Notes: generated by a model not told the origin, from the letters alone. A stretch of DNA of 64,000 bases from Polyangiales bacterium (GCA_965227405.1 OZ245758.1:2868338-2932337); one strand, 5' to 3'. Positions 6,060-25,369 are shown, numbered from the stretch's first letter. Program-made: numbers and translations.

Positions 6060-8657
<2,598 letters not shown>

Positions 8658-8863: not shown

Positions 8864-10018
8864 GTGAAACCAGGCAAGCACATGGGCGCGTACTTCGCAG
8901 CGCTTCCCTTCGTGCTTGGTCTGGTGTGGTTGGCGCTGCAGTTCATGGACAGCACATTGCTCGTGGAGCTCTCGCTCTATGCTGGACCGACTCTGCTCGC
9001 AGGCATGGTGCTCGGGCTCCCGATCGTGGCCGGCGTGTTTTGGAAACGCGGTGACGCTCATCCCATCGCACGTGCGGCGTTGATCATCACCTTGCTCTCA
9101 CCGCTTAGCGTGGTGCTTCCGTGGGCGTCGGTCCCCGCAAACATCGGTCTTGGGTTGGCGAACTTCGCGTTCTTTGCGGAGTGGCTGACGAAGTACCCGA
9201 ACTTCGGGCCGATCAACTACGAAGTGCTTCTCGGCATTCTGTGCATCTGCGGCTCGGCCACAATGCCCGCGGTCTATGCGGCGAGTCGACTTTGGGGAGA
9301 TGACGACAATCGCTCCCTGAGCGTCGTGCTCTTCGTGCTCTTTCTCGTCGCGTATCTGCCTGTGCTGTTTCGCCTCGATCTCGAATCGTTGCTGGTGTGG
9401 GGAGCCGCTTCGTACGTGTTTGCTGCCGGCGCGCTTATGCGAGCGCTCCTCTTGGTGTACATGGTGGTTGGCGTGTTTCACGGAACAGCAACGCGTGCGG
9501 CGGCGATGGCCGCAGTCCTGTTGATGGGATGCGATCAGGCACCACCCGTGAGTAGCGACCTGCGCTTCCACACTCCCAAAGCGACCATCGACACACTGCT
9601 CGAAACCTACGGTCTCGAGATGGTGAGCCAAGACGAGATTCGTCGACGCATGCAGATCGGTCGCTCGTTTCACCTCGTCGATCCCGAAACGCGCGATCTC
9701 TGCTTTGCAGATTTCGACGGTCCAGAAGACGAAGGCATGATCGGCTACGTGTTTGGTGGGTTGGCGCCCGCGAAGGACGACGTGCGCATCACCCAGACCG
9801 GCGACACTGCGCACGCGTTCGGTGAAACACGCGATGGGCGGCGCAATCGACCGATTGTTTTGGAACGTGACAGCACAGGTGCCTGGCGAATTGTGCTGGA
9901 GGAAAGCGTGCCGTCGGATGTTCGCGATCGCCTCGATCGGGTGGTGGAAGAGGGCGACAACCCGCTCAAACGCTACCGACAGCAAGCACCAACGCCCGAC
10001 ACGCCGACGCCTAACTGA
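8864..10018 (+). CDS. hypothetical membrane protein with C-terminal soluble domain
   Basis: About 200 aa with 5-6 TM helices, then a lipobox-like stretch (AAMAAVLLMGCDQ) and a roughly 170-aa soluble domain. Could be one protein or two fused calls. Lies upstream of the ion-transport operon. Confidence 0.35.
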   Translation: MKPGKHMGAYFAALPFVLGLVWLALQFMDSTLLVELSLYAGPTLLAGMVLGLPIVAGVFWKRGDAHPIARAALIITLLSPLSVVLPWASVPANIGLGLANFAFFAEWLTKYPNFGPINYEVLLGILCICGSATMPAVYAASRLWGDDDNRSLSVVLFVLFLVAYLPVLFRLDLESLLVWGAASYVFAAGALMRALLLVYMVVGVFHGTATRAAAMAAVLLMGCDQAPPVSSDLRFHTPKATIDTLLETYGLEMVSQDEIRRRMQIGRSFHLVDPETRDLCFADFDGPEDEGMIGYVFGGLAPAKDDVRITQTGDTAHAFGETRDGRRNRPIVLERDSTGAWRIVLEESVPSDVRDRLDRVVEEGDNPLKRYRQQAPTPDTPTPN

Positions 10019-10075: not shown

Positions 10076-11413
10076 GTGCGTCTACCCGTCCGTCTCTTGC
10101 TTGTCGGTGTGCTGCTCCTGGTTCCGCAACGCGTGTTTGCGGCCAGTACGGAAGAGTCCGATGTCAGCAACGTGGTGCTCCTCTTTACGGGCATCGCCGT
10201 GGCGTACCTACTCGCGCACTTCTTCGTCGACCGACTGCAGCAACGCTTCCTTGTTCTCAGTGGTGCTGAGTACATCCTGCTCGGACTCTTCTTAGGTCGC
10301 ATCGGACTGCTCGATGATCTCACCGGCATCCTTCCGCTGATCGCACTCGCTGCTGGATGGGTCGGACTCCTACGCGGCATGGAGATGGACTCGCAACATC
10401 TCATGAACCGACACGAGCGCACGCTGCGTTTGGTGTTCTTGCACCATGTTGTGCCTGGTGTGTTGGTCGGTTGCGCGGCGTACTGGTTCCTCTGGACCAG
10501 CGACTGGGGCGACTACTTCTTTGGTCACCTTGGCGTCGACGCGTTGCCGTGGCGCACCGTTGCCGCGAGCTGCTTCATGCTTGGGTGCTGCGCAGCATCG
10601 GATTCGGCCGAGCCCTTCGATCTCTTGATGCGCCGCTATCACATCGAAGGGGAACTGACGGCTCGCCTTCGCGCACTCGCGCGCTTCGGGGACTTCTTCG
10701 TCATCCTCGTGTTCGGTGCGGTGTTCTGCGTATTCCACCTGGATCGCGAAGGTGCCGAACTCTCGCTTTCTGCTGCCGAGTGGTTCCTCGTCCAGGTGAG
10801 TCTGGGGGTTGTGCTGGGCGCACTCTTCACACCGTTCTTGGGTGGTAACGAAAGCCCCAACGGTCGTTTCCTCGCGCTGACTGGAATCATCACGTTTGCA
10901 TCGGGCTCGGCGTACTTCCTCAACCTGTCGCCGCTGGCTGTGAACCTCGCGCTCGGCATGGTGTTGGTGAACGTGGCGCGCACTGGGCCACTGATGCGCG
11001 AGACGCTGCACACCACCGAGAAACCGATGACGCTCATGTTGTTGGTGTTGGCAGGTGCGCTGTGGCGAATGCCACCACTGATTCCCACGCTTGTGGCGAT
11101 TCTCGGCTTCGTGCTTCTGCGCACCTTGGGCAAAGCGATCGGCTCACGCGTCGCTGCCGCTGGTGTCGCGGGGATGCGCAACGATCTTTACCGCGGGTTT
11201 CTCTCGCACGGCGAAGTCACGCTTGCGATGGCGGTGTCGTTTCAGGTCGTCTTCGACGGACCGGTTGTCGACCTGGTCTACACCGTCGTGCTGGTCTCGG
11301 AGGTTGCCCACGACATCGTCGCGCCTCGCATTCTGCGCGGACTTCTCGTGGACGCGGGTGAAGTACGACGCGAACGACGCCAGCCCTTGGTGGCAGAAGA
11401 AGGAGCCAGCTGA
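10076..11413 (+). CDS. cation:proton antiporter-like membrane protein (divergent CPA/Na_H_exchanger fold)
   Basis: 445 aa with a signal peptide (MRLPVRLLLVGVLLLV) and about 11 TM helices with glycine-rich breaks typical of CPA transporters. Its stop overlaps the trkA start (TGATG). Confidence 0.45.
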   Translation: MRLPVRLLLVGVLLLVPQRVFAASTEESDVSNVVLLFTGIAVAYLLAHFFVDRLQQRFLVLSGAEYILLGLFLGRIGLLDDLTGILPLIALAAGWVGLLRGMEMDSQHLMNRHERTLRLVFLHHVVPGVLVGCAAYWFLWTSDWGDYFFGHLGVDALPWRTVAASCFMLGCCAASDSAEPFDLLMRRYHIEGELTARLRALARFGDFFVILVFGAVFCVFHLDREGAELSLSAAEWFLVQVSLGVVLGALFTPFLGGNESPNGRFLALTGIITFASGSAYFLNLSPLAVNLALGMVLVNVARTGPLMRETLHTTEKPMTLMLLVLAGALWRMPPLIPTLVAILGFVLLRTLGKAIGSRVAAAGVAGMRNDLYRGFLSHGEVTLAMAVSFQVVFDGPVVDLVYTVVLVSEVAHDIVAPRILRGLLVDAGEVRRERRQPLVAEEGAS

Positions 11414-12759
11414 TGTACGTCGTGGTGGTTGGTCTCGGCGAAGTGGGTCGGCACTTGCTTCAGGTGCTGGAGTTCGAAGGACACGATGTCGTTGCCATCG
11501 ACCGCGATCCCGCTGCGGTGAACTACGCGCGTGAGCATTTTGATGTCGCCACCTTGGAAGGGTATGGCGCCAGCGAAGAGATCCTGGACAAGGCGGGAGT
11601 TGGAAGCGCGGACCTACTCGTCGCCGCAAGTGACCACGACGAGGTGAACCTGATCGCTGCGCTGGCCGCCAAGCAACTCGGTGCCAAACGCGTGATCGCG
11701 CGCGTGCAGCGAAACGATTGGGCCAAGTGGCGAGCCGGTATTCGCTACGGACTTCTCGGGGTGGATGTCGTGATCAACCCACGCGTGTTGGTCGGACAGG
11801 AACTGGGACGCGTTGCACGTTCGCATGGTGCGGTGGACGTGATCGACCTGGCACAGGACCGCGTTGAGCTCGTGCAGATGTCGATGACGTCGCGCATGGC
11901 GAACCGACCGCTTTCCAAACTGCAGCTTCCTTCGCAAACATTGATCGCGGCGTACGTTCGCGACGGCGAGTTGGTGGTTCCTGGCGGAGCCGACGTGTTG
12001 CTTCCGGGCGATACCGTGTACCTGATCGGCCGCCCCGAAGCGATTCTCGAAGCCGAAGATCTGTTTTCGACGGAGCGCGAAGCGCGGCGGATCGTGATCG
12101 TCGGTGGTGGTGTGGTTGGACAAGCGCTTGCGCGCGAATTGCTGCCGCACGGTGTCCAGGTGACGCTCATCGAGCAGGACGAGAAGGTCGCCGAAGAGTT
12201 GGCGGTTCAATACGACGGCTTGGATGTGCGTGTCGGCGATGGAACCAACGCCGATCTGCTGCACGAAATTGAAATCGGAACCTACGACCTCTGCGCGTGC
12301 GTGACGCAAGAGGACGAGATCAACTTGATGGCCGCGTTGATGGCGAAGCGTCACGGAGTTCCGCGTACTGCCGCAGTTGTGAAGCGAGCCGACTACGGTC
12401 CGATCTACAAACAGCTGGGTATCGACATTGTGTTGAGCCCGCGTACGGTGGCGTCGGATCACATTCTTCGCTTCTGTCGCGGTGCCGCGGTGCACTCCGT
12501 TCACACACTGGAAGAAGGCGCGGCGGAAGTCATCGAACTCACTGCGCAACGTGGCTCTCCGATGGTCGGCACGCCGCTCAAGCGCGTGCGCATGCCCAAG
12601 GGCTCTCTGGTCTGCGCAGTGATTCGCCCCGATGACGTCACGGTCCCGCGCGGCGATGACGAAGTGAACGTGGGCGATCGTGTGGTCATCGTCGCCACGG
12701 CTGAAGCGAAGCCGTCGATCGAACGCATGTTCCGAGGGAGGCGCGTATTCAAGCGGTAG
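11413..12759 (+). CDS. trkA: Trk potassium uptake system NAD-binding subunit TrkA
   Basis: 448 aa with two tandem KTN/RCK units. Each has a Rossmann motif (VVVGLGEVGRHL and IVIVGGGVVGQALA) followed by a TrkA_C domain. Confidence 0.85.
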   Translation: MYVVVVGLGEVGRHLLQVLEFEGHDVVAIDRDPAAVNYAREHFDVATLEGYGASEEILDKAGVGSADLLVAASDHDEVNLIAALAAKQLGAKRVIARVQRNDWAKWRAGIRYGLLGVDVVINPRVLVGQELGRVARSHGAVDVIDLAQDRVELVQMSMTSRMANRPLSKLQLPSQTLIAAYVRDGELVVPGGADVLLPGDTVYLIGRPEAILEAEDLFSTEREARRIVIVGGGVVGQALARELLPHGVQVTLIEQDEKVAEELAVQYDGLDVRVGDGTNADLLHEIEIGTYDLCACVTQEDEINLMAALMAKRHGVPRTAAVVKRADYGPIYKQLGIDIVLSPRTVASDHILRFCRGAAVHSVHTLEEGAAEVIELTAQRGSPMVGTPLKRVRMPKGSLVCAVIRPDDVTVPRGDDEVNVGDRVVIVATAEAKPSIERMFRGRRVFKR

Positions 12760-12794
12760 CTCCCTCCCGCCGTCGTGTTCGCAGCTTTCGGGGC

Positions 12795-14258
12795 GTGGGT
12801 CGTCCCGTCGGTGCTGTGGTCATGGGACTTGGCGGTGCGATCGCGCTTTGTGGCGCGACCGGCATGATCTGGGATGCGGTCGCGCCCAACGCGGACCTGC
12901 CGAGCGGTGGTGCGATGACCACGCTTGCAGCGGCTGCAGTGACGGTCGGAATTGGTGCCGCGGTGTTTGCGTGGGGACGGCAACAGCAAACTCTGACGCG
13001 TCGTGAAGCGTTGCTTGCCGTTGCGTTGATCTGGATCGCCGCCGGTGTGTGCGGCGGATTGCCCTACTGGTTTGGTGCGAGCATGTCGCCCGCGGATTCG
13101 TTCTTCGAATCGGTGAGCGGGCTGACCACGACAGGCGCAACGGTCATCACCGATATCGAAGACCGCCTGTCACGTCCGCTCTTGCTCTGGCGTTCGATGA
13201 GTCAGTGGCTTGGCGGTATGGGTATCGTCGTCCTCTTCGTTGCGATCTATCCGAGCTTGGGCGCGGGTTCGAAACGTCTCTACCGCGGTGAAGCACCGGG
13301 CGCGCAGGTCGAAGGCTTTCGCCCACGCATGTCCGAAACGTCCGTGACGCTGTGGAAGATCTACGCGGCGTTCACGATCTTGGAAGTGATCATCCTGAGC
13401 TTGCTCGGCATGGATGTCTTCGAAGCCGTGTGCCATTCGATGACGACCATGAGCACCGGCGGATTCTCCACGCGCGATGCGAGTGTGGGTGGTTTCGGCG
13501 TGGCGTCGTACGAGTGGACCATCAGCGTGTTCATGCTGATCGCCAGTGTGAACTTTGGGCTCTACTACCGATTGCTGCGCGGTCGTTCGCTGCGCTCGGT
13601 CGTGCGCGATATCGAGCTGCGCGCGTTTGGGCTCATCGTGTTGGTCGCCACCGCGATCTTCGCCGTACTCAACTATCGACTTCATCCGGAGCCGGTCGAG
13701 TCGCTCCGCTATGCGCTCTTCATGACAGCGACCACGGTTTCGAGCACGGGCTACGGCACCGACGACTACACGCAATTTCCGGTGCCTGCGTTTGGAATCA
13801 TGTTGGCGGTGATGTTCATCGGTGGGTGTTCCGGTTCGACCGCCGGCGGCATCAAGGTCGAACGCATCGTCATCCTGCTCAAACAAACGTTCGCGCAGAT
13901 CAAACGGAGCTTTGAACCCACTGCAGTGCACGTTGTGCGACTCGGAAAATCAGTCGTGCCTGCGCCGGTATTGGCCGACGTCGCCAGCTTCTTCGTCGTG
14001 TACATGATCACGATCGGTGTCGGTGTGCTGCTGGTCGCATCGGTTGAGTCGATTCCGATCACCACCGCGTTTGGCGCGATGCTCACCTCGGTCTCGAACA
14101 TGGGTCCGGCACCCTTCCATGATGCCGCCGGGTTGTCCGACAACTTCGCGAGCTATGGCGGCGCGACCAAGATCTTCTTTGCTGCCGCGATGCTGCTCGG
14201 TCGTCTGGAGTTCTTCACCTTGCTCTCTCTTCTTTTGCCCGGGTTCTGGCGCCGATGA
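12795..14258 (+). CDS. trkH: potassium transporter TrkH
   Basis: 487 aa polytopic membrane protein with repeated selectivity-filter-like segments (TTTGATV, STGGFS, SSTGYGT, CSGSTAGGI) typical of TrkH/KtrB. Its stop overlaps the next start (ATGA). Confidence 0.8.
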   Translation: MGRPVGAVVMGLGGAIALCGATGMIWDAVAPNADLPSGGAMTTLAAAAVTVGIGAAVFAWGRQQQTLTRREALLAVALIWIAAGVCGGLPYWFGASMSPADSFFESVSGLTTTGATVITDIEDRLSRPLLLWRSMSQWLGGMGIVVLFVAIYPSLGAGSKRLYRGEAPGAQVEGFRPRMSETSVTLWKIYAAFTILEVIILSLLGMDVFEAVCHSMTTMSTGGFSTRDASVGGFGVASYEWTISVFMLIASVNFGLYYRLLRGRSLRSVVRDIELRAFGLIVLVATAIFAVLNYRLHPEPVESLRYALFMTATTVSSTGYGTDDYTQFPVPAFGIMLAVMFIGGCSGSTAGGIKVERIVILLKQTFAQIKRSFEPTAVHVVRLGKSVVPAPVLADVASFFVVYMITIGVGVLLVASVESIPITTAFGAMLTSVSNMGPAPFHDAAGLSDNFASYGGATKIFFAAAMLLGRLEFFTLLSLLLPGFWRR

Positions 14259-17200
14259 GCGAACACGAAGACGAGACGCCGGAGGAACCGGTGAGCGAAG
14301 ACGAGACGGTCGAATCGACAGAGTCGGTTCAGGAGGACACCGGCGCCGAGCACAGCGACGAAGACCACGGTGATCACGCCGAGGATGATCACGGACACGG
14401 ACATGGTCATGGTGACCACGACGACGAGCATGGTGGTCACGGGCACGGTGAAGGCGCGACGTTCCGTCAGGCCACGATTGTCACGCTACTCGTTGCCGCG
14501 CTTCTCTTGCTGCACCGATTTGGCGACGCCGGCGGCTCGGGGCAGTTCGATCCGACCGCGATGTTGGCGCTCGGGTTCGTCGTGTTGGCGAGCTTCACGA
14601 TCGGTCACCTGGTCGACGTCATCAAGTTCCCCCACATCACCGGCTACCTGCTTGCCGGCATGGTGTTCGGGCCTTCGATCGGCGGCCTGCTCGACGATCT
14701 GCTGGAGATCCATCTGTGGGAGCCCTTCAACGAAGGTGTTCTGAACGACACGATCATCAAGCAGCTCAGTCCGCTCGAAACGCTGGCCGTTGCGCTCATC
14801 GCAATCACAGCCGGCGGTGAGCTCAAACTCGAGACACTACGCTCAGGGCTGCGATCGATCTTTTCGATCCTCGTGGTGCAGCTGATCTTCGTGCTCGGCG
14901 CAACGGTCGGACTCTTCTACCTGATCAGCGGTTCGATCCCGATGCTCGCGCTGCCAGGACTCGGCGAGATCAGTAGCTCAGCCATCGTGCCCATTGGCTT
15001 GACGCTTGGTGCGATCGGTTTTGCGACCTCTCCTGCGGCCACGATCGCGGTCATCAACGAAACCGGCGCGAAGGGCCCGATGTCGCGCACGGTGCTGAGC
15101 ACCGTCGTCCTCAAAGACGTCTTCGTCGTCATCATGTTCGGCATCTTCTCGGCGTTGGCTGTCCAAGCCATGGGTGGCGCGACCGAGGGCAATCTCGCGA
15201 TGGAGCTGCTGGTCCACATCGGTGGCTCAATGCTCGCGGGTGTGGTGCTGGGTGTCGCGCTCGCGCTTTACCTGCGCTTCGTCAACGCCGAGTTGATGCT
15301 GTTTATCGCCGGTACGGTTTATCTCGGCTCGTATCTGTCGTCGCAACTGCACCTCGATCCGGTCCTTGTGTTCCTGGTCGCTGGATTCGTGGTGTCGAAC
15401 TTCTCACGCCACGGCGAAACGCTCATCCACACGGTCGAGCGTCTCTCGATGCCGGTGTACGTGGTGTTCTTCACGCTCGCGGGCGCGAAGTTGCACCTGC
15501 ATGAGGTCATCCACGCGTTCTGGTTCGCGCTCGCGTTGGTGCTTGCTCGTATCGTTGCGATCTACCTGGGTGTGCGACTCGGTGGCTGGATCGGTCGTGC
15601 CGACGACGCGACCAAGAAACACGGTTGGATGGGCTTCGTGTCGCAAGCAGGAGTCGCGATCACGCTAGCCAGTTTCGTGAAGCGAGACTTTGGTGCACAG
15701 GGTGAAGCGCTTTCGAACTTGTTGATCGCTGGTGTTGCACTCAACGAGATCTTGGGTCCGGTTCTGCTCAAGATCGGATTGAGTCAAGCGGGCGAAACGC
15801 GAGCTGCAAAACAACAAGCCGCCGAACTCGCCGAAGCCGAAGAGGGCGAAACCAAGATCGAGATCGAAGCGTGGCCCGAGCCGGTCGACGATGTCGCGTG
15901 GGGTCCCCATCTCGCTGGCGCACTCGGTCGGCAGATTCGCGAACTCGAACACGACCTCAAAGCGAGCGTTCGTGACGTGGCCATGGGTCCGATGGAGACC
16001 TTCCGCGAAGACGTCGAACAGTTCTTCAAGGAAGTGCGCCGTGACTTCTTGCGCATGCATCGTCGCTTGTTGGTGGCCGCGCGTACGTTGCCCGAAGACA
16101 GCGAAGAACAGATCGCAGCGCGTGCAGAGATCGCCCGTCGTTTGCGCGGCGAGCAAAAGGAGTTGGCAGAGCGCTGGCGCTCCGTCGTCCTCGCGCGTGT
16201 GGCCCAACTGGGCAAAGAACCGCCCTGGACTCCTGAGTCGATCGTCGAGGCGCTGGATGGCGCAGTGGATCGGGTCGCGACCACCGTGGAGGTACCCTGG
16301 TCGGAACGCAGTTTCACAGCTCGCGAAGACGATGGTCGTCTTCAAGCTGCACAACGTCGTTGGCTTCGGATGCGCCGAGGGACGCGCCGGCTCTTTGGCC
16401 GCGACATGCCACCGCGTGTGTTGGCGCTTCGGGATCTCGCACGCTTTCACCTCAACTTTGAAACCCCGCCTCGTCTGGAAGGAGTGGCTGCGCTCTTTGT
16501 GGCTGCCGAACAACAAGTTGCGGGTCGAACGCGGCTGATCTTCGACACGATCGTGCGTTCGTACGACGACTTGGCTGACGCGATCGCCGACGACGACCAG
16601 CTGGACCTGGTCGACGCGTTGACCATGGTGCGCGCCGACATCGAGGTTGAGCTCGACTTGGCCACCCAAGAGGTTGGGCACATCGCACACGATGGTTCGT
16701 TGCGTACCGCACGCATTCTTTCGCGCGGACTGCGTGACGTGAAGGACGAGTCGGCGATCTACGGCACCTTCGACCTCCCGGAACGAGCACGTCGGAGCAG
16801 TCGCGGTCTTCGTGAACGCGTGCAAGCGCTGGACTTGTTGACGCACACGCTGACTCGCTTGCGACGTTCGTCCGGTGGCGAGCTTGCGCTGCTTGCGATG
16901 GAGCTCGAACTCGTGGGACTCGAAGCACAGGTCAAGGAGGCACGCGCGGAGCACGTGACGCGTCTCGAAGCGGAGGTGCAGCGGCGTGCAGTGCACCAGC
17001 TCGAACGCGTGGCCGATCAAGTTCGCTCGGCGTCCGACGAGATGTTGGAGGCGTTGGAGAAGGCCGAAGACCGAGACGAACTTGCGGCGGGGCTTCACGA
17101 AATCTCGCAAGCGACGGAGAAAGTTGCCGGCGAAGCGGCACGCATCGTGCGCGAGATGCGCGACGAGCTGCTGGACGATCAGAAGTTTGCACAGCTGCTG

Positions 17201-18919
17201 GAGACCCTCGAGGAAGCCGCGCTTGGCCTGACTCCACACTACGACGTGAGTGCGGGTCGCCTGCAGCGTGGTGAGTTTAAGTTGCCGCCGGTCGTGGAGC
17301 GGGTCGACGTTCCTTTCCGCGAGATGGTGGTCGCGCGCATCGAGACGCGCATCGCACCGAGCCTGTTCAAGTCCGCACGCGACACCGCCGACAAACTTCA
17401 ACCGCTAGCTGCGTCACTGACCGAAACTGAGCACCTGATCGCGTTCAACGACGACTTGGTTCGCACCGAACTCGACAGCTTGATGGACTCGCGCATTCCC
17501 AGCGAAACGCGTGACCTGCTCCGCGAGCTTCTGAGCACGCAGCTCGAACGAAGCCAGGGATTGCTTAGCGACTACCTCGACCAGGCGAGTTCGTGGCCGC
17601 GCCAGTTGGGGCAGTCGATCGTCGACGCGATGGAGGGAGGCGTCAACGAGCTGCGGGTGGAGTTGGTCGAAGGCCAGATCACGCGCGCCAAAGTTGAAGA
17701 GATCCGTCGCGAAGCCAACCGTCGTCGACTGGCACAGCGCGCGGGTCAGCTGCCCTCGTTGCTTCGACAAGCACGACGTGAACTTGGCGACGCGATCACG
17801 TCGTTGGTTGGTGCCTCGCGCTTGGAGCTCTGGCGTAGCGCACTCGGTCTACCGGTTCCCAAGAGCGCGTTGATCCTCGAGCCGGGCGCTTTTGAAGCGG
17901 CGAGCTCAGAGGCTGAGAATCTACCCCTGGTCTATCGGCGGTTGTTTGCGGGCGACGCGATGGATGCGGGTGATGTGCTCACCGGACGCGAAGCGAGCAT
18001 TGCGCGCGTGAAGAAGGCACTCGAAGAGCGTGATGCGCGGCGCGGTGTTGCGGTGATCGGCATTGAAGGCGTGGGACGTGGCTCGGTGGCTTCGGCAGCG
18101 GTGCGTGCCGGACGTTGGCGCCGCGTTCGCAACATCACCTTTACGGGACCGGCGACGGTCGAGGATGTCGTCGAGCAACTGGGTACGATCACCGACGCGC
18201 AGCTTGTCGTCGTGGACGGGCTGCACTGGTTGTTGAGCGCACGGCCCGAGGGGTTGGCTCCGCTACGACGCTTTGTGGACGAAGTCGTCGCCGATCGGGG
18301 CAAGCGTGCGTGGTTGGTGGTCGCCGAGTCGTTGTTTTGGGAGTACGCGTCGAGCGTTGCGCCCTTGAGCGAGGCGTTTCCGACGGTGGAGCAGCTCGCA
18401 CCGCTGGGTTTGGAAGAACTGCGTGCGGCCGTGATGGCGCGACATCGGCTCAGTGGATACGGGCATTCGTTCCAACGGATCGGAACCGAGAGCCGAATTG
18501 AAGGCCTGGTGGCGCGAAGCGCGAGTCGTATCCGTCGTCCCTTCGACCAGTACTTCCACGACCTGCATCTTGCGAGCGGTGGTGTGCTTCGCGACGCGTT
18601 GCGCTTGTGGCTGGCATCGATTCAAGGCGTGCAGGATGACGAGATCGTGCACGTGGGTCGTGTACCCGAGTCTGGTTTTGCGTCGGTGAGTCGTCTGCCG
18701 GAGCAGGAGTTGTTGTGGCTCTTTCAGATTGCCCGCCAGGGTTGGATGGACGCCGTCACGTTTGCGAGCGTGTTCCGGATTGAAGTGGGTGAAGCCAGTG
18801 CGCGTTTGGCGAAACTTGCGCACTTGGGGTTGCTGGAAGAAGCCGAAGGTCGGCACCGAATCACGCCGCACCTACGCGGAACCGCGGTGCGTGTGATGCA
18901 ACAGCGAGGCTGGGTATGA
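14255..18919 (+). CDS. giant fusion protein: His-rich acidic N-terminus, CPA2-type cation:proton antiporter domain, about 1000-aa coiled-coil region, degenerate AAA_16/STAND-like C-terminal module
   Basis: 1554 aa. Residues 1-70 are acidic with an HGHGHGHGDHDDEHGGHGHG run. Residues about 75-510 are a membrane domain with the CPA2/KefB-like GYLLAGMVFGPS motif. The remainder is Arg/Glu-rich helical sequence ending in RGVAVIGIEGVGRGS (Walker A with K to R) and LVVVDGLHWLL (the DDLHW-like motif of AAA_16). ATGA-coupled to trkH upstream and the MscS gene downstream. Confidence 0.6.
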   Translation: MSEHEDETPEEPVSEDETVESTESVQEDTGAEHSDEDHGDHAEDDHGHGHGHGDHDDEHGGHGHGEGATFRQATIVTLLVAALLLLHRFGDAGGSGQFDPTAMLALGFVVLASFTIGHLVDVIKFPHITGYLLAGMVFGPSIGGLLDDLLEIHLWEPFNEGVLNDTIIKQLSPLETLAVALIAITAGGELKLETLRSGLRSIFSILVVQLIFVLGATVGLFYLISGSIPMLALPGLGEISSSAIVPIGLTLGAIGFATSPAATIAVINETGAKGPMSRTVLSTVVLKDVFVVIMFGIFSALAVQAMGGATEGNLAMELLVHIGGSMLAGVVLGVALALYLRFVNAELMLFIAGTVYLGSYLSSQLHLDPVLVFLVAGFVVSNFSRHGETLIHTVERLSMPVYVVFFTLAGAKLHLHEVIHAFWFALALVLARIVAIYLGVRLGGWIGRADDATKKHGWMGFVSQAGVAITLASFVKRDFGAQGEALSNLLIAGVALNEILGPVLLKIGLSQAGETRAAKQQAAELAEAEEGETKIEIEAWPEPVDDVAWGPHLAGALGRQIRELEHDLKASVRDVAMGPMETFREDVEQFFKEVRRDFLRMHRRLLVAARTLPEDSEEQIAARAEIARRLRGEQKELAERWRSVVLARVAQLGKEPPWTPESIVEALDGAVDRVATTVEVPWSERSFTAREDDGRLQAAQRRWLRMRRGTRRLFGRDMPPRVLALRDLARFHLNFETPPRLEGVAALFVAAEQQVAGRTRLIFDTIVRSYDDLADAIADDDQLDLVDALTMVRADIEVELDLATQEVGHIAHDGSLRTARILSRGLRDVKDESAIYGTFDLPERARRSSRGLRERVQALDLLTHTLTRLRRSSGGELALLAMELELVGLEAQVKEARAEHVTRLEAEVQRRAVHQLERVADQVRSASDEMLEALEKAEDRDELAAGLHEISQATEKVAGEAARIVREMRDELLDDQKFAQLLETLEEAALGLTPHYDVSAGRLQRGEFKLPPVVERVDVPFREMVVARIETRIAPSLFKSARDTADKLQPLAASLTETEHLIAFNDDLVRTELDSLMDSRIPSETRDLLRELLSTQLERSQGLLSDYLDQASSWPRQLGQSIVDAMEGGVNELRVELVEGQITRAKVEEIRREANRRRLAQRAGQLPSLLRQARRELGDAITSLVGASRLELWRSALGLPVPKSALILEPGAFEAASSEAENLPLVYRRLFAGDAMDAGDVLTGREASIARVKKALEERDARRGVAVIGIEGVGRGSVASAAVRAGRWRRVRNITFTGPATVEDVVEQLGTITDAQLVVVDGLHWLLSARPEGLAPLRRFVDEVVADRGKRAWLVVAESLFWEYASSVAPLSEAFPTVEQLAPLGLEELRAAVMARHRLSGYGHSFQRIGTESRIEGLVARSASRIRRPFDQYFHDLHLASGGVLRDALRLWLASIQGVQDDEIVHVGRVPESGFASVSRLPEQELLWLFQIARQGWMDAVTFASVFRIEVGEASARLAKLAHLGLLEEAEGRHRITPHLRGTAVRVMQQRGWV

Positions 18920-20064
18920 GGTACGCGTTCCTGCTTGCGTTGATCGGTGCATCGACAGCGCACGCGCAAATCGGCTCACGCGGTGCGGTCGAAGTTGTTC
19001 GTGAGGGCGACAACGTACCCACACCGCCCCCTGAAGCGGAGCCCGCAGACGCGGTGGTTGCCATCGAAGATGTTCCTGAGGAGGAACCTGCGGTTGAGCC
19101 CGAGCCGGCGCCAGTTGCGCCCGAACGCGTTGAGGCACCAGTGCAGCGCACACAGCAGGCTGCGGAGATTCCTCCCGGAGATGCGGAGCCTCAGCCCCGT
19201 GAGCCTCGTGAGCCTCGTGAGCCCCGGGAGCCCACGACCATCGTCGAGCGCGTGGAGCAGCCTGCACCAGAACCCACAACGGTTGTGGTGGCTCGCGAAA
19301 GCGATCCGCTCGTCAACGAGCTTCAAGAGTTCGTGAGCATCTTTGGGCGTGATGGGAGTGGAAACCTCTGGGGCATCCTGCTCTGGTTCATTCTCGCTGC
19401 GGTCGCAGCCACTGGCATCCGCCGCGTTCGTGAGAGCTTTCCGTCGGATGGACTCATCCCCAACGCGCTCGCGCTCTTGCATGTAGGCATGCGATTGGTG
19501 GTGATCGCGCTCGCTCTCGCGTTCATCGTGCGTGCGCTTCCACCGCGTCTTTCGTTGGTGATGTTGCTGGCGTTCGCAGGTCTTGCTGTAGCGATCGGTT
19601 GGTCGCTTCGCGACGTGATGCCGGACCTAGTGGCGTCGTTGGTGATCGCGTTCGAGCGTCGCATTCGGCGTGGCGTGTGGGTGTCGGGTGAAGGGTTTGC
19701 AGGGCACGTTGAACGGCTGGGACTACGCGCCGCGCTTCTCTACGACACGCACGGCAACCGCGTGATGGTTCCCAACCGCGAGATCGTTCGTGCACCGGTT
19801 ACAGCAGGTGTGGGTGACCACGCTCGTGAGTTGGAGGTCGAAGTGCGCATTGCTGGACCGGCGGAAGAAGTACGCGCTGCGTTGCGCGATGCGGTGTTGA
19901 CCTCGCCTTGGGTTCATCCCGACGCAAAGCCGGTGGTGCTACGCGATCCTGCCGATCCTGAGCGCTGGCGCGTACGAGGACGCCTCTTGGAAGCGTCGTT
20001 TGGGGCGCGTTTTGAAGGAGAGCTTTTGGAGCGTGCCGAAGCCCTGCTAGGAAGAAGCGCGTGA
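18916..20064 (+). CDS. mechanosensitive ion channel, MscS family
   Basis: 382 aa with a signal peptide, then a Pro/Glu-rich low-complexity region including (PRE)n. It has three TM helices and the MscS beta-domain (GWSLRDVMPDLVASLVIAFERRIRRGVWVSGEGFAGHVERLGLRAALLYDTHGNRVMVPNREI). Confidence 0.75.
   Translation: MRYAFLLALIGASTAHAQIGSRGAVEVVREGDNVPTPPPEAEPADAVVAIEDVPEEEPAVEPEPAPVAPERVEAPVQRTQQAAEIPPGDAEPQPREPREPREPREPTTIVERVEQPAPEPTTVVVARESDPLVNELQEFVSIFGRDGSGNLWGILLWFILAAVAATGIRRVRESFPSDGLIPNALALLHVGMRLVVIALALAFIVRALPPRLSLVMLLAFAGLAVAIGWSLRDVMPDLVASLVIAFERRIRRGVWVSGEGFAGHVERLGLRAALLYDTHGNRVMVPNREIVRAPVTAGVGDHARELEVEVRIAGPAEEVRAALRDAVLTSPWVHPDAKPVVLRDPADPERWRVRGRLLEASFGARFEGELLERAEALLGRSA
19194..19232 (+). 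repeat. in-frame 9-bp tandem repeat (cgtgagcct x about 4) encoding PREPREPREPREP
   Basis: Visible as gagcctcgtgagcctcgtgagccccgggagccc in the sequence. Lies inside the MscS gene's N-terminal region. Coordinates approximate. Confidence 0.7.
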
Positions 20065-21095
20065 CGCTGCTGGCGCAGAACTTTCCGGCGCTCTCGATGG
20101 TGCCGCACGTGCCCCTCGCGCAGACCACGGCGGTGGAGCAAGTTGAAGAGCTGTCCACGAATGCCGAAGTGTGGGTTAAGCGCGATGACCAAACCTCGTC
20201 GGTGTACGGCGGCAACAAGGTGCGCAAGCTGGAGTTCCTTCTAGGCGACGCGCGTCAGCGTGACTCCAAGACGCTCGTGACCGCAGGGGCGTGGGGTTCG
20301 CATCACGTGTTAGCGACGACGCTCTTCGGCACCAAGTGGGGCTTCAACGTGCACGCGGTGATGGTTCCGCAGCCGCTGACTCCCCATGCCGAGAACAACC
20401 TGCGCTGCGTCGTGGGTGCGGGTGCGAAACTTCATCCCGTTCGAAGTTGGATCGCGACTGCACCCACCGTGGCTGGTTTGGTCGCATCGCTCAATCGTTC
20501 CGAAGGTGGTGCGTACCGGGTTGCGTACGGCGGCTCGTCCGTGGTGGGTGCACTCGGTTTTGTTGAAGCGGGCTTGGAACTCGCTGCGCAGATTGCCAAA
20601 GGCGAGTGTCCGGAACCGGATGCGATCTACGTTCCTCTGGGAAGCGGAGGGACAGCTGCTGGGCTCGCTGTAGGGCTCGCCGCAGCCGGCCTGACGACCG
20701 AAGTCGTTGCGGTGCGTGTGACGCCTTTGGTGGTGTGCAATCGCGCGACGGTGAGTGCGCTGGTGGTCGGCATTCTTCGGCATCTCCGATCGCTGGAGAT
20801 TTCGTTTCCGGCGGTGCGACGCGCGGCACTCTCCCAACTTCGTATCGATGGCAGCTTCTTTGGTGCCGGTTACGGAGAACGCGATCCTGCGGCAGAACGT
20901 GCCGCCGAGTGGGCCGAACGCTCTGGCCTTCACGTCGACCCGACCTACACCTCAAAGTCGCTTGCTGCGCTGATGCGCGATGCCGAAAGTTCGCGACAGG
21001 GTCAGAAGCTGCTGTTCTGGCTCACGCTCAGTGGAGCCGACCTGTCGGACCGACTTGCAGACGCGCCACCGCTTCCTGCATTTGCGAGACGATGA
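20061..21095 (+). CDS. PLP-dependent enzyme, 1-aminocyclopropane-1-carboxylate deaminase / D-cysteine desulfhydrase family
   Basis: 344 aa with the family hallmark KRDDQTSSVYGGNKVRKLEFLL (PLP lysine region) and a glycine-rich GSGGTAAG loop. GTG start overlapping the MscS stop (GTGA). Confidence 0.7.
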   Translation: MTLLAQNFPALSMVPHVPLAQTTAVEQVEELSTNAEVWVKRDDQTSSVYGGNKVRKLEFLLGDARQRDSKTLVTAGAWGSHHVLATTLFGTKWGFNVHAVMVPQPLTPHAENNLRCVVGAGAKLHPVRSWIATAPTVAGLVASLNRSEGGAYRVAYGGSSVVGALGFVEAGLELAAQIAKGECPEPDAIYVPLGSGGTAAGLAVGLAAAGLTTEVVAVRVTPLVVCNRATVSALVVGILRHLRSLEISFPAVRRAALSQLRIDGSFFGAGYGERDPAAERAAEWAERSGLHVDPTYTSKSLAALMRDAESSRQGQKLLFWLTLSGADLSDRLADAPPLPAFARR

Positions 21096-22462
21096 GCACC
21101 GAGCACTATCGCGCTGAGCTGTCGAAGCTCGTGCGGGGACGCTCTTGGATCGTGGCGACGGATGTTGTCGTGGGCGCAGCACGCCATGGCAAGCGCTTGC
21201 TCGACCTCGGTGCCGAACGCGTCTTGGTGATTGGTGGTTCACGCGGAACGGGCGACATCGACGAACGACTGCAGACGATCGAGCTCGGTCTTCGCGGCAA
21301 AGACATGATGGATGGAATCCGGTCTGCCGAAGCGGTGCTCGATGCACTGCCCGCGGAGGTCATCGCAGAGGTGGACGCGTTTGATCCGCAACGCGAAGCG
21401 TTGGTGGTTCGTGAACTGTTTTCGGAAGGTCGGCCTGTTGCCGGTCGACGCGTGTTTGGCGCGCGACGTCCGGAGTGGTTGGCGCTCGAAGACAAGATGA
21501 TCATCGATGCGTTTTGGGATGCTGCTGGGGTGACACGTGCACCCGCGAAGATCGTACCGGTGGCAGACGCAGAGCTTGCGCATCGAGAATTGAATCAAGG
21601 TCGCGGAACGGTTTGGGTCGCCGACAACCGCGAAGGTTGGCACGGCGGTGCGTTCTTTCTGCGCTGGATCCGACGGGACGAGGACATGCGTGAAGCCGTC
21701 GAGACTCTGGGAGGCGTCGCCGATCGTGTGCGGGTGATGCCCTTTCTGGATGGCGTTCCGTGTTCGATTCACGGCGTGGTGTTCGCGGACACGCAAATCA
21801 CGTTTCGACCGTGCGAGATGATGGTGTTCCGGACCGACAGCAACAAGCTCGCGTACGCGTCTGCGTCGACGTACTGGTTGCCGTCGAAATCCGACTCGGA
21901 TGCCATGCGAGACGTGGCGATCCGGGTGGGTCGCTACCTGCGCGATACGGTCGACTACCGCGGTTGCTTCACTGTCGATGGCGTGATGACGCGTGAAGGG
22001 TTTCTGCCGACCGAACTCAATCCACGCTACGGCGCTGCGCTTGGGCAGCTTGCAGCAGGCTTACCCGAGCTACCGCTCTACTTGTTGCACTTGGCGATCG
22101 TGGAAGGTGCGGCTCTGGACTACCGACCTTCGGAGTTGGAGTCGATGGTTGTGCGCGAGTCGCTCAAGAATCCTGCGGGGAAAGCCATGCGCATCGTGCC
22201 CGAGACGTTGGAGCCGCGCACCGCTGCGCTCGTGTTCGATGAAGGTGCGTTGCGTTTTGCTTCCGAGGGCGAACAAGCGAGCTTATCCGTCGAGCTCGGT
22301 CCTGCTGCATCCGGATCGATCCTCTTTGTCCGGGCAGTGCCTGACGCGTTGGAGTTAGGTCCTGCGCTCGGTCCACGGATCGTCGACGCGTTGCGCTTTC
22401 TCGACGACGCCTGGAAGTTGGGGCTGGGCGTGCTCGAAGCAGCCGAAGACGTACGCGAGTAG
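21092..22462 (+). CDS. ATP-grasp-like protein, function unknown
   Basis: Start set at MSTEHYRAELSKL, ATGA-coupled to the upstream stop; the track's 20606 start is an upstream in-frame extension. The central region has ATP-grasp-like features, including the E-x-N-P-R motif (LPTELNPRYG) and a preceding Gly-rich/Asp region. 456 aa. Confidence 0.4.
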   Translation: MSTEHYRAELSKLVRGRSWIVATDVVVGAARHGKRLLDLGAERVLVIGGSRGTGDIDERLQTIELGLRGKDMMDGIRSAEAVLDALPAEVIAEVDAFDPQREALVVRELFSEGRPVAGRRVFGARRPEWLALEDKMIIDAFWDAAGVTRAPAKIVPVADAELAHRELNQGRGTVWVADNREGWHGGAFFLRWIRRDEDMREAVETLGGVADRVRVMPFLDGVPCSIHGVVFADTQITFRPCEMMVFRTDSNKLAYASASTYWLPSKSDSDAMRDVAIRVGRYLRDTVDYRGCFTVDGVMTREGFLPTELNPRYGAALGQLAAGLPELPLYLLHLAIVEGAALDYRPSELESMVVRESLKNPAGKAMRIVPETLEPRTAALVFDEGALRFASEGEQASLSVELGPAASGSILFVRAVPDALELGPALGPRIVDALRFLDDAWKLGLGVLEAAEDVRE

Positions 22463-23545
22463 GTGTGGTACGTCTGCCGCGTGCGCACACTTCTTCCTCG
22501 GAGGTTTTCTCCAAAACTTGTGGTTCTCGCGTTCGCCCTCGCTTTGACTGGATGTTCCGGACTCAAGCTCACCAAGATCGATGGTGCGTACGGGTTGCCC
22601 AGCAACGTCGGGCTCTTTTTCACCGTCGACACGCGTGAGGGCGAGCCTGTTCCGGGCATGGCTGCCACCGACTTTGCGATTTACGAGGATGGTCAACTGG
22701 TTAGCGCTGACGAAAGCCAGCAGACCATTATCAATCCAGAAGTGGCGGCCGAGCACTACACGCTTCTGCTCGTGGACATGAGTGGAAGCGTGACCAACAG
22801 CGATCAGGTGCCGATGATCGTGAGCGCGGCACAGAGCTTCTCGTCGACGCTCGAGGGGTACCAAAAGGTCGCGGTGTACGCGTTTGATGGGTCGGAAGAG
22901 ATCCATCCGATTCAGCCTTTTCGTTCCAGTGCCGCAGGGATCTCACGCTTGGGTGGATTTCGGACGCGTGACCCCTCGACGAACCTCAACGGTGCGTTGG
23001 TCGCAGCAGCAGACATTCTGGATGGCGCGCTTGAAGAGGCCGAGACGCCGATGCGTTTCGGAACACTCGTGGTGTTCACCGACGGAACCGATCGCGCTTC
23101 CCGCGTGAGCGAAAGTGCAATGCGAAGTCGTTTGGGCGACAGCGGGTTTGACGTGTTCGCGATCGGAGTCGGCAACGAGATCGACGAGAACGTCCTCGAT
23201 CGGATTGGCTACAGCGGCTACGTGCTGATCGAAGACGCGGCGGCGATCGAAGCTGCGTTCCAAACGATCGGTGAACGGATCGTGGGCTACACGCAGCGGT
23301 TCTACCTGTTGAGCTACTGCAGCCCAGCACGTGCGGGGACACACGAAGTGACGGTGGAAGCGCTGCACCCGGATGGGCGCACCGGTTCGTTGGACTTTGC
23401 GTTCGATGCAACCGACTTTGGACCGGATTGTGATCCGAACCGACCGCCACCCTTTGATGCGACCGAGCGAATTCGGGTTCCGCGAACGACGGAGCGGCGC
23501 GGTCGGCTCCAAGTGCGCCTAAGCGCGAGCGTCGAAACCGAGTAG
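22463..23545 (+). CDS. von Willebrand factor type A (VWA) domain lipoprotein
   Basis: 360 aa with a lipobox LALTGCSG and the MIDAS motif LLVDMSGSV (DxSxS), with downstream T and D residues. GTG start immediately after the stop of the ATP-grasp gene. Confidence 0.65.
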   Translation: MWYVCRVRTLLPRRFSPKLVVLAFALALTGCSGLKLTKIDGAYGLPSNVGLFFTVDTREGEPVPGMAATDFAIYEDGQLVSADESQQTIINPEVAAEHYTLLLVDMSGSVTNSDQVPMIVSAAQSFSSTLEGYQKVAVYAFDGSEEIHPIQPFRSSAAGISRLGGFRTRDPSTNLNGALVAAADILDGALEEAETPMRFGTLVVFTDGTDRASRVSESAMRSRLGDSGFDVFAIGVGNEIDENVLDRIGYSGYVLIEDAAAIEAAFQTIGERIVGYTQRFYLLSYCSPARAGTHEVTVEALHPDGRTGSLDFAFDATDFGPDCDPNRPPPFDATERIRVPRTTERRGRLQVRLSASVETE

Positions 23546-23568
23546 ACCTAAACCGATGTGGCTACGCC

Positions 23569-23757
23569 ATGGGCGACTTTGCCCTGCTCTTGATCCTGGA
23601 TGACATTGTCGTCGACCCAGCGCGCTTTGAGACCTGGCGAAGCGCGTGGCGCAAAGCACGCCAATACGAAGACCCGGGCGCCATCGAGTTTTTCGATCGC
23701 TACTACGAGTGCGTAGAGACCGGCTTCGCCTACGCGATCAACAAGTTCACGCGTTAG
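23569..23757 (+). CDS. small hypothetical protein (62 aa)
   Basis: High GC3 codon bias consistent with coding. Convergent with the SDR gene and overlapping its 3' end. No domain recognised. Confidence 0.3.
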   Translation: MGDFALLLILDDIVVDPARFETWRSAWRKARQYEDPGAIEFFDRYYECVETGFAYAINKFTR

Positions 23758-24440
23758 CTGCGGCCGTAGACCGGGATCAGCGCCCCGCGCGTCGTCTTGT
23801 TCGCAGGAGACGCGAGAAAGACCATGGTCGCCGCGACTTCTTCCACCTTGGGCCACGCGTCGAAGTCTGCATCTGGCATCGCACTTCGGTTCGTGGGGGT
23901 GTCCATGATCGATGGCGCAATCGCATTCACGAACACACCGCGGTCGTGCAGCTCTTCGTCGAGTGAAAGCGTCAGTCCCACCACAGCCGACTTGGTTGCC
24001 GCATAGGTCGCGACGTTCGCGCAGGGCACGAGCGTGGGTTTCGCCGCGACGTTCACGATCCGACCTTCGTCCATTCGCTTCGCGGCTTCGCGACAACACA
24101 ACCAACACGTACGCAGGTTCAACGCGACCATCTTGTCGAACGCTTCAACGTCGGTTTCGGCGAGTGGACCCCACACAAAACCACCTGCGATATGCAGCGA
24201 CGCCCAAAGCGGCCCCGGCACAGCATCGTAAAACGCGATGGTCTGCGCTTCGTCGGTCAGATCGACGGAAGGTGTTACCCGCAACATGGCGTGGTCGATG
24301 CCCGCCAAGCGTTTCTGGTCGCGCTCGCCTACAGCAGGAACATGAACCTCCGCGCCTTCATCGAGTAGCGCGCGTACGACGGCCATTCCGAGAAAGCCGC
24401 CACCGCCGGTGACCACGACGCGACGTCCGCCAAAGCTCAT
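23754..24440 (-). CDS. SDR family NAD(P)-dependent oxidoreductase
   Basis: 228 aa with the Rossmann motif VVVTGGGGFLGMAV and the YxxxK-type catalytic region (ATYAATKSAV). Confidence 0.75.
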   Translation of the reverse strand: MSFGGRRVVVTGGGGFLGMAVVRALLDEGAEVHVPAVGERDQKRLAGIDHAMLRVTPSVDLTDEAQTIAFYDAVPGPLWASLHIAGGFVWGPLAETDVEAFDKMVALNLRTCWLCCREAAKRMDEGRIVNVAAKPTLVPCANVATYAATKSAVVGLTLSLDEELHDRGVFVNAIAPSIMDTPTNRSAMPDADFDAWPKVEEVAATMVFLASPANKTTRGALIPVYGRS

Positions 24441-24868
24441 GCTTCGGCTCGTTCTTTCAACCGCTTGTTGAGAACTTCGTAACCCTTTTCGACCTGCGGT
24501 CCGAGGAAGCGCCAGGGAAGCGAAAACAAGGGACCGGTAAACTTCTCTCCGTGCACGAGTCGCGTTCGGTTGTCGTCGATCGCTTCGAGACGAAAGAAGT
24601 GACTGCCACCGCCCAAAGGCTTTTGCAGCGAGTTGCGTGGTCCTTCCCAGCGAAGCTCGGTTCCGTCCGCACGTACAATGCGCGCCGCGATCGGTGCCTC
24701 GAGCGGGCCCAACTTGATCTTGAAGTCGATGTTGCCGCCGGGCCGGAGTTCACCACGCGGTTGCAAGATCACCGGGTTCCATTCGCTGTATGAATCGAGG
24801 TCGGTGAGGATTTCCCAAACGCGTTCGACCGGTGCGTCGATCGCCAGACTTGTGAGCACGAGCGGCAT
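24437..24868 (-). CDS. SRPBCC (polyketide cyclase/START-like) domain protein
   Basis: 143 aa. The N-terminal MPLVLTSLAIDAPVERVWEILTDLDSYSEWNP matches the SRPBCC/Bet v1-like signature. ATGA-type coupling with the downstream SDR gene. Confidence 0.6.
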   Translation of the reverse strand: MPLVLTSLAIDAPVERVWEILTDLDSYSEWNPVILQPRGELRPGGNIDFKIKLGPLEAPIAARIVRADGTELRWEGPRNSLQKPLGGGSHFFRLEAIDDNRTRLVHGEKFTGPLFSLPWRFLGPQVEKGYEVLNKRLKERAEA

Positions 24869-24922
24869 GCCGCGGATCTAGCAGACCCGCCTGGTCGCGA
24901 CTAGCGAACGCCGAGCGAACTC

Positions 24923-25339: not shown

Positions 25340-25369
25340 ATCGTGATCATAGGGCTCAAGCGCGCGGCT

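Follow-up and report, generated by a model that had tools for sequence, protein, structure and literature searches.

A 64,000-nt stretch of the genome of a Polyangiales bacterium (GCA_965227405.1, OZ245758.1:2868338-2932337; hereafter, the window) contains at positions 10076-23545 a series of eight co-directional genes. These encode, in order, a membrane protein of the cation:proton antiporter (CPA) fold designated here g1, the potassium transport subunits TrkA and TrkH, a second CPA-type protein of unusual length (the giant protein), an MscS-like channel, a pyridoxal 5'-phosphate (PLP)-dependent enzyme, a probable ATP-grasp family protein (g7) and a VWA-domain lipoprotein (g8). The CPA domain of the giant protein is followed by a cytoplasmic tail of ~1000 residues, which is the most distinctive part of the operon and was not mentioned in an earlier, sequence-only reading of the window. 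Across the architectures found in other genomes, the tail and the MscS-like channel are an invariant pair, usually accompanied by the Trk pair. It is proposed that the operon is a K+/turgor homeostasis cassette in which the tail would act as an undescribed cytoplasmic regulatory or scaffold subunit, an overall picture held with slightly better than even confidence; any specific role of the tail is suggested with considerably less. The parts come from known families (Trk, the CPA superfamily, MscS, AAA+, PLP fold-type II, ATP-grasp and VWA) and what is new is an undescribed conserved component in an ion-homeostasis operon.

Evidence for the tail-channel pair comes from tails that occur without a CPA domain. 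The tail (aa 520-1554) was used as the query of an exhaustive phmmer search of 1.84 billion cluster representatives. There were 155 hits at E <= 1e-30, and about 19 of the best 150 of these representatives were stand-alone tails of ~1000 aa that start at the tail's start. They are real genes, located on contigs of up to 395 kb, and encode soluble proteins with no transmembrane (TM) segment. Their genes are organized as TrkA-TrkH-tail-MscS (loci L090/L091, L092, and L093), TrkH-tail-MscS (L088, at a contig end) or tail-MscS (L089), with overlapping junctions, and an MscS-like gene follows the tail in all of L088-L093. No g1 and no PF00999 gene was detected nearby in the five stand-alone contexts examined. 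Taking all architectures together, L043 and L016 are the only contexts examined in which the tail is not followed by an overlapping MscS-like gene.

The conservation of the remaining genes was evaluated by a scan of one genome per species, which produced 144 confirmed matches to the giant protein; 80 loci were kept with flanks of up to 10 kb and compared with the window proteins by tblastn. The order g1-TrkA-TrkH-giant-MscS is the conserved, collinear part in most of these loci, even where the identity of the giant protein is as low as 31%. Among the 71 loci with at least 4.6 kb of upstream sequence, the giant gene is preceded by g1, TrkA and TrkH in 61, by g1 and TrkA without TrkH in five (L054, L060, L070, L078, and L079), by g1 alone in three and by none of them in two. 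Of the 71 loci with a CPA-fused tail, 69 also have g1, and the five stand-alone contexts lack both g1 and the CPA domain. On the other side, the MscS-like gene is found 3' of the giant gene in 58 of the 60 loci with enough downstream sequence. An in-frame start codon at -4 or -1 of the upstream stop was present at 47/68 g1/TrkA, 45/62 TrkA/TrkH, 44/59 TrkH/giant and 57/59 giant/MscS junctions, a count that takes the start nearest to the stop and is somewhat biased toward tight junctions; the giant/MscS overlap is the best conserved of the four. Since the tight packing recurs in other genomes, it is more than a chance arrangement. Judging from these sequences, the cassette core is conserved across Polyangiales/Sandaracinaceae-type Myxococcota. 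The eight-gene unit put forward in the sequence-only reading passes the test of neighbourhood conservation for its five-gene core, whereas its three 3' genes are lineage-specific and the whole eight-gene order was found elsewhere only in two metagenomic contigs from close relatives, L083 (giant protein 96% identical) and L084 (81%).

These observations bear on an alternative in which the operon would be a bundle of independent transporters merely co-expressed for osmotic/K+ adaptation, the tail being only an autoregulatory domain of the antiporter, as in NHE/SOS1, with no link to MscS. Every part but the tail indeed belongs to families that work autonomously elsewhere, and long regulatory tails are carried by the SOS1/NHE exchangers, the PDB entries closest in sequence to the CPA domain. 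However, where the tail stands alone no CPA domain is encoded, so in those genomes the tail cannot be an autoregulatory domain of an antiporter, and yet the separate soluble protein still has an overlapping MscS-like gene directly 3'. The fact that the giant/MscS overlap is the most conserved junction of the cassette also argues against the absence of a link. This explanation, the best placed of the alternatives, is considered unlikely.

More than 370 full-length homologues of the giant protein (~1500 aa) were identified, all in metagenome-assembled genomes (MAGs) of Myxococcota type (Polyangiales, Sandaracinus/Sandaracinaceae, 'Deltaproteobacteria'), and the family alignment shows conservation across the entire length. 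PF00999 is the sole significant Pfam domain, and the public annotation of these proteins is limited to 'cation:proton antiporter', 'KefB' or 'ATP-binding protein'; caution is advised with records bearing either of the first two names, which leave two thirds of the ~1500-aa protein undescribed. Public gene models of the family also need care, since frameshifted assemblies make both false fusions and false splits. P0273 (2083 aa), apparently a giant::MscS fusion, was rejected because residues ~1335-1800 are an Arg/Ala/Gly/Pro-rich out-of-frame translation caused by an assembly frameshift. The 1947-aa open reading frame (ORF) of L042 was likewise discarded as a g1-giant fusion, being an upstream over-extension in the frame of the giant gene with g1 in a different frame. 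Conversely, in L083, a contig of 1.9x coverage, TrkA, MscS and PALP are each called in two pieces, which are false splits by frameshift. In the window, the first 67 residues of the giant protein (14255-14455) are acidic and His-rich (…DHGHGHGHGDHDDEHGGHGHGEG) and are missing or much shorter in most homologues; this segment looks like a metal-binding or low-complexity extension restricted to the lineage.

The tail starts with a long helical rod that has no recognizable family and no informative structural relative; sub-cutoff Pfam matches to TMP_3, FliX, and MnmE_helical within the rod were dismissed as coiled-coil noise. It ends with a module that has the alpha-beta-alpha base and helical lid of the AAA+ fold, followed by a winged helix. 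Both nucleotide-binding motifs deviate from the consensus. Walker A in the window protein is GIEGVGRGS (nt 18059-18085), with Arg in the place of the Lys of the canonical GxxxxGK[ST], and most homologues have GxDGVGK[AGS], with no Ser/Thr straight after the Lys; a canonical P-loop is confined to some of the stand-alone tails, such as P0266 (GPPGVGKST). The Arg is also present in P0016, P0274, and P0310, and P0002 (83% identical) has Lys; the P-loop lysine appears to have been lost recurrently within the family. The Walker B segment of the window protein reads LVVVDG, and among homologues the position after LVVV is occupied by D, E, N, S, Q, R, or G and then by Gly, so that the catalytic acid of hhhhD[DE] is not conserved. 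Given the unconserved Walker B and the Lys to Arg change in Walker A, the module is unlikely to be a working motor in the window protein and is probably a nucleotide-binding or oligomerisation switch. It differs from the AAA+ modules of Orc1/Cdc6, RFC, and RuvB and from the NBD-HD-WHD of STAND proteins in that it shares only 8-17% identity with them, has degenerate Walker A and B motifs and is attached to a transporter and a rod.

The CPA domain of the giant protein covers positions 2-372 of the 375 of the PF00999 profile, and 14 of 14 aligned homologues match this profile as well. In CPA transporters the Asp at position 7 of the site motif (EcNhaA D164) is essential (PMC6181914), and it is preceded at position 6 by Asn, Asp, or Gln, giving ND, DD, or QD (PMC6181914, PMC11150392). 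In a profile alignment to SOS1/NHX7 structures, K287-D288 of the giant protein (nt 15113-15118) lie opposite ND, and T258-S259-P260 opposite TDP. D288, assigned to position 7 through the SOS1 alignment, is invariant in the giant family, the Glu at position 5 that is a hallmark of CPA1 is missing, and position 6 carries Lys instead of any canonical residue (LKD in 59 of 69 family members). Likewise, ATDP is replaced by ATSP (aa 257-260), of which T258-S259-P260 are invariant in the family. No description of such a CPA variant, with Asp7 but no Glu5 and with Lys at position 6, was found in the literature searched.

KefB/KefC were cited in the sequence-only reading as CPA2 antiporters gated by KTN domains. 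The antiporter pair is not KefB/KefC-like: neither g1 nor the giant protein has a fused KTN domain and the motif of the giant protein is Lys-Asp instead of QD. A KefB/KefC-type identity is ruled out for the giant protein, as TrkA_N matches are absent from both g1 and the giant protein and the RCK protein is encoded by the separate TrkA gene. The resemblance to KefC/KefB and KEA (CPA2 proteins with fused KTN/RCK and QD) comprises the CPA-fold membrane domain, the invariant Asp7, an RCK protein as genomic partner and a presumed connection to K+; the giant protein differs in having no fused KTN, in the Lys for Gln at position 6 and the ATSP in TM helix 4 (TM4) (PMC11150392), and in a C-terminal extension of ~1000 aa made up of the rod and the AAA+/winged-helix module, where KefC/KefB and KEA have RCK. 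Eukaryotic NHE/SOS1 exchangers provide the best PDB sequence matches to the domain (SOS1/NHX7, NHE1), which are weak (E ~6e-4 to 2e-3), and they resemble the giant protein in having a very long cytoplasmic extension after the CPA domain. Unlike them, the giant protein lacks the Glu at position 5 and the ND motif, and the tail folds are unrelated, with a CNBD-like helical domain in SOS1 vs a helical rod and AAA+ module in the giant protein.

For g1, no match was obtained in Pfam, NCBIfam, or PDB sequences. Its relationship was detected by comparison with the N-terminus of the giant protein, both by BLASTP (4e-11 across 427 aa) and by hhalign with an alignment of 70 g1 sequences (99.9%, E 7e-37, 416 columns). 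On this basis g1 is a paralogue of the CPA domain of the giant protein, and its previous description as a second CPA antiporter-type protein is confirmed through the hhalign comparison, not through any direct Pfam match. In the g1 family, D206, the Asp at motif position 7, is conserved to 90% or more and is mostly preceded by Gly (LGD), a further departure from the canonical Asn/Asp/Gln.

The unusual site raises the possibility that the CPA-fold domains are pseudo-transporters serving as membrane anchors or sensors, with the AAA+/winged-helix tail as signalling output, for example as a membrane-tethered, nucleotide-switched DNA- or protein-binding regulator of ion-homeostasis genes. Lys at position 6 and Ser for the TM4 Asp in nearly the whole family are in line with this proposal, as are the AAA+-lid-winged-helix order, which is that of Orc1/Cdc6 and STAND switches, and the degenerate Walker B, expected of a switch and not of a motor. 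On the contrary, the invariance of the transport-essential Asp7 and the strong conservation of the TM domain argue for retained ion binding, and the existence of soluble stand-alone tails shows that the tail can do without a membrane anchor. DNA binding by the tail is only putative, and a more obvious regulator is the separate TetR gene that precedes the cassette in ~30 loci. Altogether, this explanation is regarded as improbable.

Trk is a K+ uptake system in which TrkA, a cytoplasmic RCK ring, gates the TrkH channel. The assignment of both subunits in the sequence-only reading was corroborated, TrkA at the equivalog level and TrkH at the family level. TrkA is unambiguous (NCBIfam equivalog NF007039, 426 bits vs a cutoff of 293), and PF02254 and PF02080 each match it in two stretches, corresponding to two RCK (TrkA_N plus TrkA_C) units. 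The matches of the TrkH-family protein to NF008020 and TIGR00933 are under the equivalog cutoffs. As in other TrkAH systems, trkA and trkH are adjacent and have canonical domain content; in contrast to these, they are flanked by two CPA-fold genes, with start-stop coupling to both. The presence in some relatives of trkA without trkH in the cluster suggests a second client for TrkA, which may also serve or gate the CPA pair, as some clusters retain TrkA between g1 and the giant gene with no TrkH.

MscS channels release solutes upon hypo-osmotic shock. The channel call also holds at the family level (PF00924, NCBIfam): the predicted protein comprises a signal peptide, a Pro/Glu-rich periplasmic stretch, three TM helices, a beta domain and a C-terminal domain, and the NCBIfam MscS/MscK models align its aa 154-303, including TM3 and the beta domain. 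The Pro/Glu-rich N-terminal region (~130 aa) is variable, since tblastn alignments with homologues begin only past it. Within this region, a PREPREPREPREP repeat is encoded at 19195-19233 (aa 94-106). The window protein resembles MscK, MscM, and bCNG-type channels in its recognizable TM3 pore helix and beta domain, and gating tuned by an added component has precedent in the MscS family. The difference is that the candidate regulator is not a channel domain but a cytoplasmic protein of ~1000 aa, separate or fused to a CPA domain, whose gene lies directly 5' of the channel gene. Full-text searches of a limited literature set found no description of an AAA+ partner for MscS-like channels or of a Trk-CPA-MscS operon.

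Based on the available evidence, the homeostasis cassette favoured here could function as follows. TrkAH would import K+, and g1 and the CPA domain of the giant protein would act jointly as a heteromeric exchanger with atypical chemistry or coupling owing to the Lys-Asp site; a g1/giant heterodimer is likely because CPA-fold transporters work as dimers and g1 and the CPA domain co-vary. The MscS-like channel would be the release valve. The tail, produced at a constant ratio to the channel, would be a cytoplasmic regulatory or scaffold subunit for it and, when fused, for the exchanger, and could couple the activity of both to a cytoplasmic signal, with the AAA+ module as a nucleotide-binding or oligomerisation switch.

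Several points weigh against this model. Co-transcription, the g1/giant heterodimer and the contact between tail and channel are all inferred from gene order. With Lys at position 6 and Ser instead of Asp in TM4, the CPA domain may lack cation exchange activity altogether, and two loci, L043 and L076, encode a giant protein without its partners or without g1, in both cases with a CPA domain and no g1. With no informative structural relative for the rod, a sensing role is a guess, and the C-terminal winged helix resembles the DNA-binding modules of Orc1/Cdc6 and RuvB, a poor fit for a pure channel regulator. Finally, the relatives are all MAGs, apparently of Myxococcota, and their taxonomic labels and some gene models are unreliable.

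A bolder version of the model is offered as speculation and is thought rather unlikely to hold in full. According to it, the rod-AAA+-winged-helix protein would be a new class of cytoplasmic MscS partner, in which a large helical-bundle rod would connect the channel to TrkAH and/or the g1/giant exchanger and the head would be a nucleotide-sensing pseudo-ATPase. A single machine would then gate K+ uptake, exchange and emergency release; as a corollary, the Lys-Asp CPA pair would be the first natural heterodimeric CPA transporter, with altered ion coupling. The usual view is that Trk/Ktr/Kdp uptake, Kef/CPA efflux and MscS/MscL valves are separate devices, each regulated alone. It appears that a whole bacterial order keeps them within a single stop/start-coupled cassette, along with a ~1000-residue protein that is frequently joined to an antiporter carrying Lys in its ion site. 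A tail that regulates or scaffolds the channel would represent a new mode of control for mechanosensitive channels and a handle on the coordination of uptake and release, and if g1 and the giant protein heterodimerize, they would constitute the first heteromeric CPA exchanger.

The features of the locus are compiled in Table 1. The eight ORFs and their junction sequences were found as described in the sequence-only reading. Consecutive genes overlap by TGATG at 11413, by ATGA at 14255, 18916, and 21092, and by GTGA at 20061; the ATP-grasp and VWA genes abut (TAG|GTG, 22460-22465) and the sole spacer in the series is of 35 nt, 5' of trkH. Purine runs resembling Shine-Dalgarno sequences are located within the 3' ends of the upstream genes (e.g., GAAGGAG 5' of trkA), as expected for translational coupling. 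A consensus scan detected no sigma-70 promoter-like site on the + strand, and terminator-like sites were at the level of shuffled sequences (19 vs 17.7 +/- 4.4), both scans being weak evidence for a myxobacterium; an Rfam scan of the window gave no match to a riboswitch or other RNA element. Altogether, the eight genes make up a tightly packed unit that is probably co-transcribed. Regarding start codons, the ATG of the ATP-grasp gene lies within a longer ORF (20606-22462), and gene callers place the start of the VWA gene ~18-21 nt farther downstream on near-identical contigs.

Table 1. Features of the locus in window coordinates; the last four rows refer to positions in the homologous loci named.
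Feature	Position (nt)	Strand	Description
g0	8864-10018	+	384-aa membrane protein, ~six predicted TM segments, soluble C-terminal part
g1	10076-11413	+	445-aa polytopic membrane protein; by profile alignment, divergent CPA-fold paralogue of the N-terminal domain of the giant protein
TrkA	11413-12759	+	Tandem RCK/KTN regulatory subunit; PF02254 4e-51, PF02080 3e-26
TrkH	12795-14258	+	TrkH-family K+ transport membrane subunit; PF02386 3.7e-56, aa 61-477
Giant protein	14255-18919	+	1554 aa; acidic/His-rich N-terminus, CPA domain, helical rod, AAA+ module, winged helix
Giant, CPA (Na_H_Exchanger) TM domain	14582-15763	+	aa 110-503; PF00999 1.5e-26
Giant, rod	15902-17839	+	aa ~550-1195 (~650 aa); cytoplasmic, all-helical, long helical hairpins and bundles
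Giant, C-terminal module	17990-18907	+	AAA+ base and lid (aa ~1246-1470), winged helix (aa ~1474-1551)
MscS-like channel	18916-20064	+	PF00924 1.6e-8, 35 bits vs cutoff 20.2
PLP-dependent enzyme	20061-21095	+	PF00291 2.6e-28, 99.7 bits vs cutoff 35; clade-specific add-on
ATP-grasp family protein (g7)	21092-22462	+	456 aa; probable assignment from homologue matches and ELNPR motif
VWA-domain lipoprotein (g8)	22463-23545	+	PF00092 and PF13519 ~1e-7; PF00092 32.7 bits vs 23.8
Gene 3' of MscS-like channel, L088	4406-5503		Varies by lineage
Gene 3' of MscS-like channel, L092	13244-13939		Varies by lineage
Gene 3' of MscS-like channel, L093	13576-14283		Varies by lineage
Gene 3' of MscS-like channel, L089	8189-9640		Varies by lineage

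The three genes located after the channel gene are progressively lineage-specific 3' additions. The PLP enzyme and the VWA lipoprotein were correctly named before, the former at the family level only: it has the lysine motif GGNKVRKLE at aa 50 and probably belongs to the D-cysteine desulfhydrase/ACC deaminase-like family, and its NCBIfam matches (D-Cys desulfhydrase, CuyA, ACC_deam_rel; ~1e-41, ~142 bits) fall below every subfamily cutoff (289-450). The VWA protein shows a lipobox (LTGC, aa 28) and an intact metal ion-dependent adhesion site (MIDAS) motif (DMSGS, aa 105). Although the window ATP-grasp protein has no direct Pfam match, deeper analysis favours this call as well, on the grounds of the PF02655 matches of its homologues and the ELNPR motif: its family has more than 1800 proteins, 20 of the 35 members sampled match PF02655 (ATP-grasp_3; best 7e-7), E308 and N310 in ELNPR, a Mg-site motif, are invariant and the family profile has a PDB match (E 0.008) to a carboxylase ATP-grasp domain. 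The suggestion that these enzymes contribute the synthesis of an amino-acid-derived solute or signal found no comparative support. The PLP gene follows MscS in 15 of 60 loci, mostly those with the giant protein closest to that of the window, and by tblastn the ATP-grasp and VWA genes are present in none of the 80 species-level loci, being appended only in the closest relatives; outside the window the VWA gene was found in L083 and L084 only. A conserved biosynthetic PLP/ATP-grasp pair was ruled out by the unrelated neighbourhoods of the ATP-grasp homologues P0130 and P0131 (56-61% identity) and P0227 (46%).

Upstream of g1, after the divergent ClpB gene (6060-8657) and 57 nt before g1, lies g0, which may be the first gene of the unit. 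No Pfam or NCBIfam match was obtained for g0. It is lineage-specific and occurs in only one of the 80 loci, L007. Matches to its C-terminal part (~150 aa) were confined to L007/L081 and L083, and in L081 and L083 this part is encoded by a small gene of its own. In ~30 loci, a TetR-family gene is located directly upstream of g1 on the same strand (e.g., L082, 5095-5760). These loci form a large clade with a giant protein 47% identical to that of the window, which has g0 at this place, and the TetR-family protein is a candidate dedicated regulator of the cassette. The gene 3' of the MscS-like channel also varies by lineage, encoding a Hexapep acyltransferase, YceI, a metallo-beta-lactamase fold protein or a PLP enzyme, and the 3' end of the cassette looks like a preferred site for gene addition.

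The surroundings of the cassette are housekeeping and stable: a ClpB gene precedes it both in the window and in L081, and its neighbours in L082 are genes of the mevalonate pathway or for 2-oxoacid dehydrogenase. Base composition is uniform across the window (GC ~61%). These data, together with vertical conservation, the Trk genes embedded in the cassette and a PADLOC search with no hit for any of seven proteins, make it very improbable that the cluster is a mobile defence/stress island combining an AAA+/STAND NTPase with a membrane-channel effector instead of serving housekeeping ion homeostasis, even though AAA_16-type NTPases coupled with membrane effectors are common in anti-phage systems and variable genes accumulate at the 3' end. 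Downstream (23548-28823), the - strand carries a short-chain dehydrogenase gene, a polyketide-cyclase-like gene, a DCC1-like gene and a TMEM260-like glycosyltransferase gene, followed by a gamma-glutamyltranspeptidase gene on the + strand. This block is syntenic with L083 and L084, and the dehydrogenase and VWA genes are convergent, their stop codons being only 2 nt apart.

A 578-aa antisense ORF (15665-17401, - strand) lies wholly within the giant gene; long antisense ORFs of this kind are frequent all over the window, are spurious and should not be annotated. Farther downstream, the gene at 49391-53296 encodes a Ser/Thr protein kinase of 1301 aa that carries a fused AAA_16 (STAND-type) NTPase domain. 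This second AAA_16-type protein of the window has a typical myxobacterial signalling architecture and is unrelated to the operon.

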